Below are positions 1-3,000 of a stretch of DNA of 18,400 bases, one piece after another. How positions within the stretch are numbered: the stretch's first letter is position 1; each line of letters starts with the position of its first letter. Origin of the DNA: a virus (Duplodnaviria > Heunggongvirae > Uroviricota > Caudoviricetes); the IMG/VR virus record IMGVR_UViG_2724679293_000004, one strand, 5' to 3'. Made by a program: the position numbers.

Positions 1-3000
1 CCGGTATATCGACTTCGATGTACGGGTTAATTTGTCTGGCGACAGTGGCAAGGTCTTTATTCAAGAGTGCTTTGCATTCTGCTTTGGTATACGTTTTACC
101 GGGAATGATGTCTTTTCCGGTGTGTCCGTGACATACAGTCCATACGCCAACGATATCTTCGTATGGTATGTAGCTGACACCTTCCAGGCCATCGTCACCA
201 CTCGGACCAGTGATGAGCACAGACGCTATGGCAACAGCCCCACCACCAATAGCAGCAGCAACAGCCTTGCGTAATGATGGCGACATTATTCACCTCTCGC
301 AGCCTTACGCTTATCTTCTTTAATCTTGAAATAAAGGTTTGTCAGATACGTCAGCAAGCCAAACACCAGGCTACCCAATACGCCTATTGCCACCCACTGG
401 GATGGGGAGACTTTGTCCAGCAACTGCAGTAGCCAGTATCCCGTCCCCACCGCTGACGTGGTGTATGACACACCTGTTGTTATTTTTTCCATCTGGTACA
501 TACCCCGTCTCCCGTTATCCGGAAGCTGACAACAATAAAAAGCCACCAGTTAATTCCTGATGGCCCTGATGCATAAACGTCATAATACCTGACTGTTATG
601 ATTGACAATAATGATAATGTTTATATAGAAAGGTTCCCGATGTGTGTTACATATCATTTCTCCACGGGGAATATCCCCACGCCAGCGCAGACTCTTTTAC
701 CCGTTCTCTTCTGCGCTGGCTCTTTTTTATTATGCTGCTGCATTTACCTCTGGCACCATGCTTTCTATCTCAACACAATACGTGGTACTTCTTGTAACCA
801 ATATCATAACGATTAATCGACATAGAATTTCTCCCGTGTACAGGAACAGAGTTAAAAAGCCGGAACCGGAATCAAATCACAGGATGACCATCTGCCAGTG
901 GCAGGTCATAAAAAAAAGGCCGCGCCATGCGCAGCCAGAACTCACAAGGAAAATGATAGAAGGAAATAACATTAGTGATGTACGCATGGCGCCTCCCGCT
1001 AAGTTCTGCAATGATCAAACAGAACTCGCTACGTGCCCTTAAAACTCGATCATTTAGCCCCTCCAAGGAGGATNNNNNNNTAGTGATGTACGCATGGCGC
1101 CTCCCGCTAAGTTCTGCAATGATCAAACAGAACTCGCTACGTGCCCTTAAAACTCGATCATTTAGCCCCTCCAAGGAGGATTCACCATGCGGTTGATTTT
1201 TTAATAAACAGTAAACAAAAAAGTCAAGAATTATTCATTCTGTTCTTTCATCATCGGCCACAGCAATACCACAATGCCGCAGACCAGAGCGCCATCAGTC
1301 AGTACCAACATTATCCTGCTGGTGAAATCCATCATCACCATCACTAAAAGCAGGATCACAACAGCAAGCAGACACAGTTTATAAAACAATGTTCAGAAAA
1401 CGCATTCAGCATGCCTAAGGTTCTATTCCTACGAATAGCCAACTTGCAACTTAAAATATTATTTATGCAGCCAATTAAATTCTGGTCCTTACAATATCAA
1501 CCTGAAGATTCTTATCTTGTGCTGATTGATAAATGACAAACCTTTTACTACCTGCATTGAAAGAAGTAGACAAAACCAGACAATTATCATAACGAGCAAG
1601 AACATAATACCAACCATCATTATAATTAATCATTTCATATTCTTTCTTAAACTGTGGTTTGTAATATCCTGTCAGAAATGAAAAAAGCCAAAAATATGCC
1701 ACAAAAGCAATCATCACAATCTCAAAAAAATGTTTTTTTATAAATGGCTTATCATAGAAGCATGATACCGATAAAAATCGCCCATAAGATCTTATCGAAA
1801 TTGTAACCGCCAGCGCAATCGCTGCTGACAGTAGCAAAAGAGGTACCTGAATCTTCTGTCTCAATATAGAAAACTCAATAATTGCCGGCACAAACAATAA
1901 TTCCACAGCAAAATAAAGGCGAAATACATTTAGCTCTTGCATAGAATGTTTTCTTTTCACTGCGAAAAAGAATACAACACCAATACCCCAACCGATAAGA
2001 AATATAGCAATGACGATAACTGCAAAAAATAAACTTCTGGCAACATCATCAACACCTGCACCTACAATCCACCATGGGAAGCCGTAGTAAAAAGAAGTAC
2101 CCCATCCATAGAAATAAGCACTCCCCCATCCAAGGCATCCCATGTAGGCAATAAAAAGTGAAGAACTCCTGAGCAGCGCACCATCCTTCATAACCACCCC
2201 AATACAAGATGATAACATTGGCTTACAACTCATAACAAAAGCAATTCAATGCCGTCAAGAGGTTACAGGCTAAAAAAACTCTATTACATAGCAGCCAGCA
2301 TGTTTACCGTACAAGTACAACTCAGGGCATAAAAAAAACCCACTCGGCAGCGGGTTTATACATTTTTTACAACATACCAAATTTGCATGAAGTATATGGC
2401 TTTTAATCCAGTTTTGCAATATTTTGCTGTAAAAATGCTGCCTTTTGTTTTGAACGTGTTCTCGTCACAAGCAATAAAGCATCACTATCAAGCTGTAGAA
2501 AAATGTGCTTCATTGCAACCCAGCGTTCAGTAAATGTCTCGGACCAGTTTTTTGTTGTCACTCCCACCAATGATGCCAGTGTCTGGTATTCATAGGCCTC
2601 ACGCCCTGCAAGTTCGCTCTTCACATCCTGTGCAGCCAGCCAGATTAACGTCTTCAGGCGATCCAGTGTCTTACCTGCAATTTTTCTGTTACTTAACAAA
2701 TCTTTAAACTCGCTCCATGCCCATTGCGTTATGGTGACCTGATGCCCCCATCGAACGCTTTCGCTGTAACACCAAAGCAACCATGCTTTCTGATGTTCAT
2801 CGAGAGACAAAACCGCGCGGCGCCATGAAGAGGTTGAGAATTCAACCGGGCTGACCAAAGCAATGGATGAACCTTTTGCGTACGACTGCTTACCGGAAGT
2901 CGGCGTATTATCCAGCGTAATCATCTTGCCAGTTACCACATCCAGAATGCGCGGCTTCTTTCGTTTGTATGTACCAGTATCAAATTGTGCATGCTCCTGC

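Follow-up and report, generated by a model that had tools for sequence, protein, structure and literature searches.

The plus-strand unit that runs from about 625 or 639 to 729 is, with a probability of roughly 0.85, the gene of EcOnc32, a trans-acting, Hfq-dependent small RNA (sRNA) and a divergent homologue of Esr41. Positions are those of the window, by which we mean the whole 18,400-nucleotide (nt) stretch of DNA that was analyzed. The EcOnc32 gene was already known, and the existence of the RNA, its binding to and dependence on Hfq, its 3′ end at the T-run and its ligation to entC are taken from published experiments on identical sequence; the position of the seed, the homology to Esr41 and repression as the outcome are what we infer here. 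By class the RNA is an Hfq-dependent trans-acting sRNA: it ends in a Rho-independent terminator (an 11-bp GC-rich stem followed by UCUUUUUU), its binding to Hfq and its abundance fit that class, and it occupies the RNA2 position in chimeras with complementarity of its seed to a partner. The features of the locus are as follows.

589–594, plus strand: alternative −35 hexamer CTGACT of promoter P1 (promoter scan, 9 of 12 matches)
602–607, plus strand: −35 hexamer TTGACA of promoter P2 (direct sequence reading)
607–625, no strand assigned: candidate Fur box AATAATGATAATGTTTATA, proposed from 15 of 19 matches to GATAATGATAATCATTATC and overlying the promoter spacer
613–618, plus strand: alternative −10 hexamer GATAAT of P1 (promoter scan; 18-nt spacer)
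624–629, plus strand: −10-like hexamer TATAGA of P2 (16-nt spacer, 608–623)
625–729, plus strand: EcOnc32 sRNA gene, whole, very probably (5′ end at about 625 or about 636–639; sequence identity, CRAC, Northern probe and covariance model)
639–655, plus strand: predicted stem-loop 1, 7 bp with loop GUU, its first base aligned to the start of Esr41 (GAUG...)
644–1042, plus strand: 132-amino acid (aa) hypothetical open reading frame (ORF) of the RefSeq annotation (ECs_0817, E2348C_1013, WP_012578864.1), probably spurious
650–665, plus strand: putative seed CAUAUCAUUUCUCCAC, made up of the 3′ half of stem-loop 1 and a 10-nt single-stranded C/U-rich linker (656–665)
666–678, plus strand: predicted stem-loop 2 (GGGGA-AUA-UCCCC), aligned to stem 2 of the Rfam Esr41 model
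681–720, plus strand: intrinsic terminator hairpin, 11 bp (sequence reading and fold)
721–729, plus strand: U-tract, 3′ end of the RNA and likely Hfq-binding site (RIL-seq fragment ends; predicted Rho-independent terminator)
911–1190, minus (late-gene) strand: PasD1/EcOnc13 homologue, the convergent partner sRNA (agrees in sequence and coordinates with PasD1 as given in the Pearl Mizrahi supplement)

Identity with a published Hfq-bound RNA

Positions 540–800 of the window are 100% identical over 260 nt to prophage Sp3 of E. coli O157:H7 Sakai and to PP4 of EPEC E2348/69. In Sakai, EcOnc32 was reported at 901574–901662 on the minus strand of Sp3, with a predicted Rho-independent terminator (Tree et al. 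2014, Table S2); this CRAC peak converts to 647–735 on the plus strand of the window, the same strand as the unit described here. EcOnc32 passed in five of five Hfq-CRAC data sets, with the second highest AUC of the orphan sites (64.7M), and gave a Northern band of ~112 nt (Tree et al. 2014). The published Northern probe, ATATTCCCCGTGGAGAAATGATATGTAACACACAT, is the reverse complement of window positions 641–675. The published entry consists of one table row, without start-site mapping, named targets or a stated function (Tree et al. 2014), and a full-text search of the searchable literature for EcOnc32 and its locus tags returned no main-text mention and nothing useful.

The same RNA appears in EPEC data under the locus tag E2348C_1013, with a baseMean of 2064 and a Δhfq/wild-type log2 fold change of −2.91 (adjusted P = 1e-23), that is, 7.5-fold lower abundance without Hfq. 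In RIL-seq chimeras it is always RNA2 (fraction 1.0 in both conditions). Its fragments span 1060613–1060672 on the minus strand, and all chimeric fragments stop at NC_011601 position 1060613, which is position 730 of the window and places the RIL-seq 3′ end at the T-run; the longest U-tract in the RIL-seq summary table is 6. A sequence-only reading had proposed a plus-strand promoter–terminator unit making a small RNA of ~90–130 nt, which agrees with the published Hfq-CRAC, Northern and RIL-seq results on identical sequence.

A covariance model built only from EcOnc32-type sequences (R1) matches positions 639–728 at 112.6 bits, its sole match in the window. EcOnc32 was found in 603 of 5,426 complete E. 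coli genomes, and a phage collection yielded one full-length match, in phage Evi (98.6%). A scan of GTDB species representatives returned only Esr41 copies and one chance match in an unrelated MAG, and therefore no diversity beyond Escherichia and Shigella was found.

Promoter region and predicted 5′ ends

The TTGACA hexamer and the TATAGA at 16-nt spacing, as well as the 11-bp perfect GC-rich hairpin and T-run at 681–729, were all confirmed as the sequence-only reading had described them. Hexamers alone are not significant at this locus: TTGACA occurs ten times on both strands of the window, about the chance level. The TTGACA at 602–607 is unchanged across variant types A–C and is also found at the homologous position 5′ of canonical Esr41. 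The P2 −10 reads TATAGA or TATAAA in types A–C, with variable bases from there up to the conserved CCCGAT. The promoter scan did not list the P2 pair because TATAGA lacks the conserved final T (−7 T); in its place it listed the overlapping P1 (CTGACT, 18 nt, GATAAT). The −35 of P1 is kept as CTGACY in types A–C and is missing upstream of Esr41, and its −10 position reads TATCAT in type B and TATAAT in type C.

For P2, the predicted start lies at about 636–639, which would give an RNA of ~90–94 nt; for P1, a predicted start at about 625 would give ~105 nt, nearer the published ~112-nt band. Both promoter-predicted lengths (~93 and ~105 nt) are below the Northern estimate, and the sequence is compatible with a 5′ end at either ~625 or ~636–639. 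The Fur-box match at 607–625 is the best in the window; shuffling equalled it in 0.3% of cases when done locally and in 7.5% when the whole window was shuffled. Conservation is partial, with scores at the homologous site of 15/19 in type B, 14/19 in type C and 12/19 in Esr41. We regard this Fur-box-like site in the EcOnc32 promoter as a new lead, at present an unproven candidate.

Terminator hairpin and RNA fold

The terminator stem is formed by GCCAGCGCAGA (681–691) and TCTGCGCTGGC (710–720), which make 11 perfect pairs, eight of them G-C, around an unusually large loop of 18 nt (692–709; CCGUUCUC), and the tail at 721–730 reads TCTTTTTTAT. The hairpin starts 51 nt after TATAGA, so that the earlier figure of about 55 nt is slightly revised. 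The terminator scan missed it because the loop limit of that scan was only 8 nt. Counting both strands of the 18.4-kb window, no other perfect hairpin reaches 11 bp with a loop of 20 nt or less, and such hairpins appeared in only 4 of 30 shuffles. The RNA from 630 to 735 has a fold energy of −35.6 kcal/mol (z = −5.9), with none of 200 shuffles as stable. The T-run is biased in strand, with 7 T in 9 nt on the plus strand versus 2 on the minus strand; since the U-tract is confined to the plus strand, the hairpin terminates the sRNA itself, and a bidirectional terminator was rejected.

The predicted fold of three stems is retained in variants with a differing loop and flanks. Across eight homologous sequences, aligned to the covariance model because MAFFT misplaced stem-loop 1 of Esr41, 93.5% of cells were paired and five pairs had changed on both sides, which was reached in none of 500 shuffles, with most of the double changes stemming from one sequence. 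In stem-loop 1, four of the seven pairs have changed on both sides across homologues.

Probable homology to Esr41 and comparison with other sRNA families

Rfam searches at gathering thresholds returned nothing at the locus, the only match in the window being the lambda cIII thermometer at 14200–14258. In E-value mode, the Esr41 model (RF02676) matched positions 641–730 over its full length (1–74) at 32.3 bits (E = 5e-4), a score far short of the RF02676 gathering threshold of 102 bits. In the reciprocal search, model R1 found the Esr41 of SpLE1 at 30.4 bits (E = 7.6e-5 in 110 kb). Both RNAs have a TTGACA −35 at a comparable distance from a common GAUG (29 versus 31 nt), both depend on Hfq, and their elements are arranged alike: first stem-loop 1, next the linker CAUUU(U)CUCCA, which is single-stranded, and then a GGGG..CCCC stem and a GCCNGC...GCNGGC terminator. 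Minimum free energy (MFE) folds of the window RNA and of Esr41 agree in showing three hairpins, with a single-stranded C/U-rich linker separating hairpins 1 and 2. These similarities point to EcOnc32 as a divergent homologue or paralogue of Esr41.

Esr41 (EcOnc14) is an EHEC sRNA of SpLE1 that works in trans, with cirA, chuA and bfr as repressed targets and effects on fliC and LEE. Its terminator loop is about 7 nt compared with 18 nt in EcOnc32, stem-loop 1 differs between the two at most positions, with compensating changes, and the EcOnc32 linker has one U fewer and a C in place of a U. The locations also differ, with EcOnc32 in a lambdoid late region (Q, DUF3927, holin, LpxR) and Esr41 in SpLE1 (O-island 43/48) near iha/ter. 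Both have iron-related targets, entC according to the interaction data for EcOnc32 and cirA, chuA and bfr for Esr41, although the target sets probably differ.

PasA and PasC of EPEC E2348/69 (homologues EcOnc51/52) occupy the same site in the same orientation, from the esterase stop codon to the holin and antisense to the late operon. They have the TTGACA −35 in common with EcOnc32, all of these RNAs are Hfq-dependent, and the terminator, T-run and downstream flank of PasC are near-identical to those of the window. Only the −35, terminator and 3′ flank align, whereas the RNA body and seed of PasA/PasC are not alignable with EcOnc32. The EcOnc32-type covariance model scored PasC at 16.2 bits (E = 0.12) and PasA at 12.9 bits (E = 0.68), within an overall range of 12.9–16.8 bits (E = 0.09–0.7). 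Identity with PasA/PasC was rejected, as only terminator and flank are common; the alignments look like a shared 3′ module joined to different 5′ modules.

Membership of the AsxR/AgvB families (RF02703/RF02702) was also rejected: neither family, characterized by a conserved ~42-nt 3′ region, gave an Rfam match in window positions 400–1400 at E up to 10, and EcOnc32 measures ~90–112 nt versus 51–60 nt. The genomic logic is the same, with convergent sRNA genes between a moron downstream of pR′ and the lysis genes (Tree et al. 2014), and diverged EcOnc32-type copies lie directly 3′ of stx2B, where AsxR sits in Sp5. EcOnc32 had zero sRNA partners in RIL-seq, and therefore there is no sign of sponge activity. 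HnrS (EcOnc10–12), a recently characterized multicopy prophage sRNA, is a different RNA of 66 nt.

Host mRNA partners and predicted pairing

EPEC RIL-seq recorded eight partners of EcOnc32 (E2348C_1013), with chimera counts of 537 for the rpoS leader, 263 for the entC 5′UTR, 72 for the IE2 region and 28 for the dnaK 5′UTR. A chimera with the entC 5′UTR was also published from EHEC RNase E-CLASH, and its EcOnc32 part corresponds to window positions 651–672, which include the seed. The entC partner was thus recovered by two methods (RIL-seq and CLASH) in two pathotypes (EPEC and EHEC).

Target energies were obtained from region-restricted duplex and cofold calculations, because full-length duplexes for rpoS, dnaK and IE2 were long and implausible. 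The seed is complementary to the Shine–Dalgarno sequence and AUG of entC (duplex −21.8 kcal/mol, z = −4.8), and the EcOnc32–entC cofold gave a ddG of −14 kcal/mol with 22 intermolecular pairs over window positions 639–665. The rpoS RIL-seq fragment contains a complement of the terminator loop, GAGAACGG (−20.8 kcal/mol, z = −2.4), and this loop may be a second, weakly supported pairing site. Predicted pairing was moderate for dnaK and weak for rpoS (terminator loop), and on the whole rpoS, dnaK and IE2 are weak or ambiguous in silico. The searchable literature yielded no reporter or mutational assay for targets of EcOnc32, so that repression of entC stands as a proposed outcome.

Genomic context and alternative explanations

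EcOnc32 on the plus strand and the PasD1/EcOnc13 homologue on the minus strand are convergent genes in the interval that separates the Q/pR′ moron region from the lysis genes, and their 3′ ends are ~180 nt from each other. The PasD1 homologue has a terminator at 936–918 on the minus strand (terminator scan) and a weak STnc100 match; in this assembly it is broken by an artefactual 108-nt duplication and a run of N. Tree et al. (2014) described the convergent layout at the pR′ moron site as general and named Sp3 among such prophages. A nanS-p sialate esterase has been deleted at the window locus, and the terminator with ~60 nt downstream has homologues in PP2 and PP5 of E2348/69, where the terminator lies at the stop codon of the esterase gene (the PasC terminator and the PasA minor terminator).

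This setting invites the view that EcOnc32 acts mainly in cis, either as an antisense RNA to the Q-antiterminated late transcript 5′ of the holin (through RNase III or interference) or through a terminator that insulates the lysis cassette. Any late transcript that reads through to S would be complementary to the gene over its whole length, and the site of the gene, directly upstream of the holin genes and convergent with the upstream moron, is repeated in several prophage types, in keeping with the generality of the layout. However, the holin start codon is at 502 and the 5′ end of the RNA lies at least 134 nt upstream of it, leaving the holin ribosome-binding site uncovered, and a separate minus-strand hairpin (567–539) intervenes. 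Uninduced cultures already contain large amounts of Hfq-bound EcOnc32. The partners recorded for it are host mRNAs from distant loci (entC, the rpoS leader and dnaK), with no lysis-gene partner among the RIL-seq matches listed, and its homologue Esr41 acts in trans from SpLE1, where no lysis genes are near. The plus-strand U-tract fits termination of the sRNA itself, and there is no upstream plus-strand gene that would need insulation. A mainly cis-acting role is on this evidence improbable, and neither the holin-antisense nor the insulator function is favored. A secondary antisense effect in cis on Q-antiterminated late transcripts may nevertheless occur.

The locus could also be taken for the 5′ end of a genuine protein gene, as the 132-aa frame stays open between 644 and 1042 and hundreds of genomes carry its annotation. 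This frame begins inside stem-loop 1 with a GTG start within the stem and no evident Shine–Dalgarno sequence, meets the strong intrinsic terminator 37–86 nt downstream, compared with an observed RNA of only ~112 nt, crosses the esterase-deletion junction and continues antisense to the PasD sRNA. No Pfam match exceeded its cut-off (the sole match scored 18.9 versus 27 bits), and where diverged loci retain the sRNA, their annotation shows the frame as partial or frameshifted. A protein gene is therefore very improbable, the protein-coding reading was rejected and the RefSeq ORF over EcOnc32 is probably spurious. The earlier statement that no plus-strand gene is nearby thus holds biologically but not for the RefSeq annotation. 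We give still less credence to the idea of a leftover, in which the terminator of the former nanS-p esterase and a chance promoter-like AT-rich stretch produce functionless transcriptional noise. The homology of terminator and flank to those of PP2 and PP5, the deletion of the esterase and the chance frequency of promoter-like hexamers would all agree with it, but in two pathotypes few Hfq-bound RNAs are more abundant than EcOnc32, its level falls without Hfq, entC was found as a partner by two methods, and the seed and three-stem layout are kept in variants whose loop and flanks diverge.

Proposed mechanism and significance

In the preferred reading of EcOnc32 as a trans-acting sRNA, it is a moron of EHEC and EPEC lambdoid prophages, located in their late region between the Q/pR′ module and the holin. 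A sigma-70 promoter (TTGACA/TATAGA or the overlapping CTGACT/GATAAT) would drive a transcript of ~90–105 nt that stops at the 681–729 intrinsic terminator and folds into stem-loop 1, the C/U-rich single-stranded linker of 10 nt, stem-loop 2 and the terminator. Expressed in uninduced lysogens and stabilized by Hfq, the RNA would act in trans, its linker and the 3′ half of stem-loop 1 pairing with host mRNAs at their ribosome-binding regions. The strongest candidate is the enterobactin-synthesis gene entC, in which the Shine–Dalgarno sequence and AUG would be occluded and translation should therefore fall. More tentatively, and with the balance of probability against it, the Fur box at 607–625 might turn EcOnc32 on in low iron; the sRNA would then block entC translation, and with it enterobactin production, through base pairing over the Shine–Dalgarno sequence and AUG, which would make it a prophage counterpart or antagonist of the RyhB/Esr41 iron circuit. 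As a further possibility, abundant EcOnc32 might also form duplexes with the late transcript 5′ of the holin after prophage induction and alter the timing of lysis.

A real sRNA gene was correctly recognized here from sequence alone, although the gene itself is not new. The analysis joins three published records of one RNA: EcOnc32 in EHEC, the 'CDS' E2348C_1013 of EPEC RIL-seq and probably the 'Esr41' matches near PasD (Zhu et al. 2026). Its additions are modest, namely that the RefSeq ORF is probably spurious, that EcOnc32 appears to be a diverged paralogue of Esr41 for which a seed is defined and an interaction with entC was recovered twice, and that the Fur box offers a testable lead. If the iron link is true, EHEC and EPEC lambdoid prophages would carry a second sRNA that rewires the siderophore metabolism of their host.

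The promoter–terminator unit is the known small RNA EcOnc32

The minus strand of the window encodes a lambdoid late region, in which the sequence-only reading had proposed a plus-strand small RNA gene at 602–729, near the holin. We found that window 540–800 is 100% identical to prophages Sp3 of E. coli O157:H7 Sakai and PP4 of EPEC E2348/69. Sp3 contains EcOnc32 (Sakai 901574–901662, minus strand; Tree et al. 2014, Table S2, PMC4104026), which has a predicted Rho-independent terminator, was recovered in 5/5 Hfq-CRAC data sets with an AUC of 64.66M, exceeded among orphan Hfq sites by AgvB1 alone, and appeared as a band of ~112 nt on a Northern blot (Tree et al. 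2014, PMC4104026). Anchoring coordinates on the holin start (Sakai 901807 = window 502) places the CRAC peak at window 647–735 on the plus strand, and the probe published for the Northern blot, ATATTCCCCGTGGAGAAATGATATGTAACACACAT, is antisense to window 641–675 without a mismatch. The unit is therefore EcOnc32, and the published Northern and Hfq-CRAC data bear out the small-RNA call.

Features around EcOnc32
502 (start), minus: S21-type class II holin
644–1042, plus: hypothetical protein WP_012578864.1 (ECs_0817 / E2348C_1013; RefSeq)
911–1190, minus: PasD1/EcOnc13 homologue (terminator 936..918, seed UUGUGAG), convergent with EcOnc32
1231–1389, minus: DUF3927 protein
1475–2233, minus: membrane protein
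2403–3176, minus: Q antiterminator
3568–4527, plus: LpxR

The published seed and terminator sequence of PasD1, an EPEC prophage sRNA, corresponds to window 960..909 (minus strand), and PasD1 itself (NC_011601 1060260–1060432, plus strand) maps to 1190..911. The 3′ ends of EcOnc32 and PasD1 face each other ~180 nt apart without overlap; convergent sRNA genes downstream of pR′ are a recurring layout, with Sp3 among the named examples (Tree et al. 2014, PMC4104026). A sub-threshold Rfam match to STnc100 at 1049–1220 (35.8 bits versus 47) agrees with the relationship between PasD and STnc100 suggested by Zhu et al. 2026.

A full 1.85-kb nanS-p sialate esterase gene occupies the equivalent site in phages 434 and 2B8 and in PP2 and PP5 of E2348/69. 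Window 799–958 matches the immediate upstream and first bases of this gene in 434 and 2B8, and window ~726–785, after the EcOnc32 hairpin, matches the antisense of its 3′ end in PP2 and PP5, indicating that the esterase has been deleted here and a short remnant left. The remnant of this O-acetylesterase gene spans ~726–825, its 3′ end (~726–785) joined to the start region (ATG 823–821, minus strand).

Two minus-strand hairpins were also observed. One with a T-run, AGGGCCATCAGGAATTAACTGGTGGCTTTTTATTG at 539–567, is terminator-like and lies ~40 nt 5′ of the holin start; in the curated record of phage 434 the corresponding site carries a terminator annotation. Directly 3′ of Q, in the place expected for tR′, window 2336–2357 forms a strong terminator-like hairpin, AAACCCGCTGCCGAGTGGGTTT, followed by a T-run.

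Promoters, terminator and the overlapping ORF

Elements of the EcOnc32 unit (all plus strand)
589–594 and 613–618: P1, CTGACT and GATAAT with an 18-nt spacer, overlapping P2 (promoter scan)
602–607: P2 −35, TTGACA (read from sequence, as in the sequence-only reading)
624–629: P2 −10-like TATAGA, without the final T, after a 16-nt spacer
681–691 and 710–720: terminator stem, GCCAGCGCAGA and TCTGCGCTGGC, perfect 11 bp with an 18-nt loop
721–730: T-run, TCTTTTTTAT (read from sequence)

The P2 hexamers are present at the spacing first described, but by themselves are no more than chance would give: the window contains 10 copies of TTGACA, about the number expected, and promoter-like sites are fewer in the window than in shuffles. 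Both P1 and P2 are kept in variant types A–C, the classes of EcOnc32-type loci, the P1 −10 reading GATAAT, TATCAT and TATAAT in the three types. P2 is common to Esr41, an sRNA of EHEC SpLE1, the distance from TTGACA to GAUG being 29 nt in Esr41 (mapped start) and 31 nt here. Initiation from P2 predicts an RNA of ~90–94 nt and from P1 one of ~105 nt, nearer the Northern estimate; the sequence by itself does not choose between them.

A candidate Fur box at 607–625 (AATAATGATAATGTTTATA), in an AT-rich stretch overlying the sRNA promoter, matches the 19-bp Fur consensus at 15/19 positions and is the top such match within the window. An equally good match arose in 0.3% of shuffles of the local sequence and in 7.5% of shuffles of the whole window, and the site is partly kept in variants (scores of 15 in type B, 14 in type C and 12 in Esr41).

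The hairpin at 681–720 is the only perfect one of ≥11 bp with a loop ≤20 nt on either strand of the 18.4-kb window, any such hairpin being present in 4/30 shuffles, and the folding energy of RNA 630–735 is −35.6 kcal/mol (z = −5.9). Chance does not account for the hairpin, and the hairpin and T-run reported from sequence at 681–729 hold up on direct reading, uniqueness and fold. Since the T-run lies on the plus strand alone, this is a one-way terminator, which halts the sRNA itself and not some plus-strand gene upstream.

The annotated ORF at 644–1042 starts inside stem-loop 1, runs through the terminator and the esterase-deletion junction and continues antisense to PasD, thus overlapping two sRNA genes. 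A Pfam search gave nothing above cut-off, and annotations of variant loci show its equivalent as broken; the ORF is most likely an annotation artefact.

Hfq dependence and host mRNA partners

In E2348/69, the EcOnc32 sequence is concealed beneath the annotated CDS E2348C_1013, which is why a RIL-seq study listed the sRNA as ‘CDS’. An RNA2 fraction of 1.0 is the usual sRNA signature. E2348C_1013 had eight RIL-seq partners and an RNA2 fraction of 1.0 in both conditions (Table S5, PMC8550237). Its expression (baseMean 2064) fell in Δhfq (log2FC versus wt −2.91, padj 1.4e-23; Pearl Mizrahi et al. 2021, Table S2, PMC8550237), similar to the EPEC prophage sRNA PasA (−2.78; Pearl Mizrahi et al. 2021, PMC8550237), and in the column read as ‘other interactions’ its fragment tally was ~808,000 versus 637,744 for GcvB (PMC8550237). 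Chimeric fragments at 1060613–1060672 (minus strand) correspond to window 671–730 (Table S3, PMC8550237), their 3′ end coinciding exactly with the terminator T-run.

Listed partners were the nlpD–rpoS leader (537 chimeras), the entC 5′UTR (263), an IE2 region (72) and the dnaK 5′UTR (28) (Table S3, PMC8550237), and the entC, rpoS and dnaK fragments all cover ribosome-binding regions. EcOnc32 CAUAUCAUUUCUCCAC (window 650–665) is a near-exact complement of the entC Shine–Dalgarno sequence and AUG, GUGGAGGAUGAUAUG, with a duplex energy of −21.8 kcal/mol (z = −4.8 versus shuffled targets); cofolding gave a ddG of −14 kcal/mol, opening cost of both RNAs included, with 22 intermolecular pairs over window 639–665. 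In EHEC, RNase E-CLASH yielded a chimeric read joining the 5′UTR of ECs0632 to ATATCATTTCTCCACGGGGAAT (Waters et al. 2017, PMC5286369). We checked that ECs0632 is entC and that the read segment equals window 651–672, so the interaction, with the predicted seed, was caught by two methods in two pathotypes. entC is the best-supported target, and pairing at this position would likely repress its translation; a search of the literature found no reporter test of such repression. The other partners are weaker: dnaK pairing is moderate (z = −3.5), the top rpoS pairing, between CCGUUCUC and GAGAACGG, uses the terminator loop (z = −2.4), and IE2 pairing was not significant in the duplex calculation.

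These data also bear on the cis-acting function first suggested for the unit, antisense control of the holin and lysis, which is possible but unsupported. While the sRNA is complementary to every late transcript reaching the holin, it stays at least 134 nt short of the holin start codon, is produced in uninduced cells and has host mRNAs as its recorded partners.

Probable kinship with Esr41, and distribution

The Rfam model for Esr41 (RF02676), run in E-value mode, matched window 641–730 over its full length at 32.3 bits (E = 5e-4), well under the gathering score of 102. Conversely, a covariance model trained on EcOnc32-type sequences alone, without Esr41, scored Esr41 at 30.4 bits (E = 7.6e-5) and found a single copy in the window (639–728); PasC (16.2 bits, E = 0.12) and PasA (12.9 bits, E = 0.68) were rejected. 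The two RNAs share the TTGACA −35 and GAUG at the RNA start, followed by a first hairpin, a CAUUU(U)CUCCA linker, a GGGG..CCCC hairpin and a GCCNGC...GCNGGC terminator, although the terminator loop is ~7 nt in Esr41 and 18 nt in the window. Among 8 distinct homologues, 93.5% of cells were paired versus 29–54% with partners slid, five pairs had changed on both sides and 0/500 shuffles reached either value, which is modest support given the small sample, the model-fitted alignment and one sequence supplying most double changes. Zhu, Shabalina and Storz 2026 describe Esr41 matches as common in the vicinity of PasD, and these are probably the EcOnc32 locus.

The unit was found in 603/5426 complete E. 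coli genomes (564 of the 603 at ≥99% identity) and in one deposited phage, Evi. Diverged types retain the promoter, stem-loop 1, linker and stem-loop 2, with a variable terminator. Diverged copies in STEC genomes (L010 1544–1634 and L011 1496–1573) lie directly 3′ of stx2B in convergent orientation, at Stx2 and Stx2i loci; this is the site of AsxR in Sp5, the Sakai Stx2 phage.

Probable assembly artefacts and other elements

An exact 101-nt direct repeat (973–1073 and 1081–1181) surrounds seven Ns (1074–1080). This sequence is single-copy in Sp3 and PP4, so the repeat is almost certainly a scaffolding artefact of overlapping contig ends joined by Ns; it breaks the PasD1/EcOnc13 gene and yields false ORFs with X residues. 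An exact 300-nt repeat (9607–9906 and 10318–10617; offset 711 bp), which has an N close to 10317, is probably a second artefact (9563–10617), and promoter-like (9967/10678) and terminator-like (10049/10760) sites are doubled at the same spacing. Beside it, iteron-like repeats TCCCTCNTTTTAGGGGA at 9563–9644 resemble a lambdoid replication origin. A lambda cIII thermoregulator element (RF01804; 14200–14258, plus strand; 88.5 bits, E = 9e-21) is the sole Rfam match in the window at gathering threshold.

Implications

The sRNA gene is already known, and this analysis makes small additions: its relationship to Esr41, the joining of three literature records under a single RNA, and the candidate Fur box. 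The best description of EcOnc32 is a prophage sRNA that resembles Esr41, depends on Hfq and acts in trans. Together with the entC target and the role of Esr41 in iron homeostasis, the candidate Fur box suggests that its expression may be iron-responsive.
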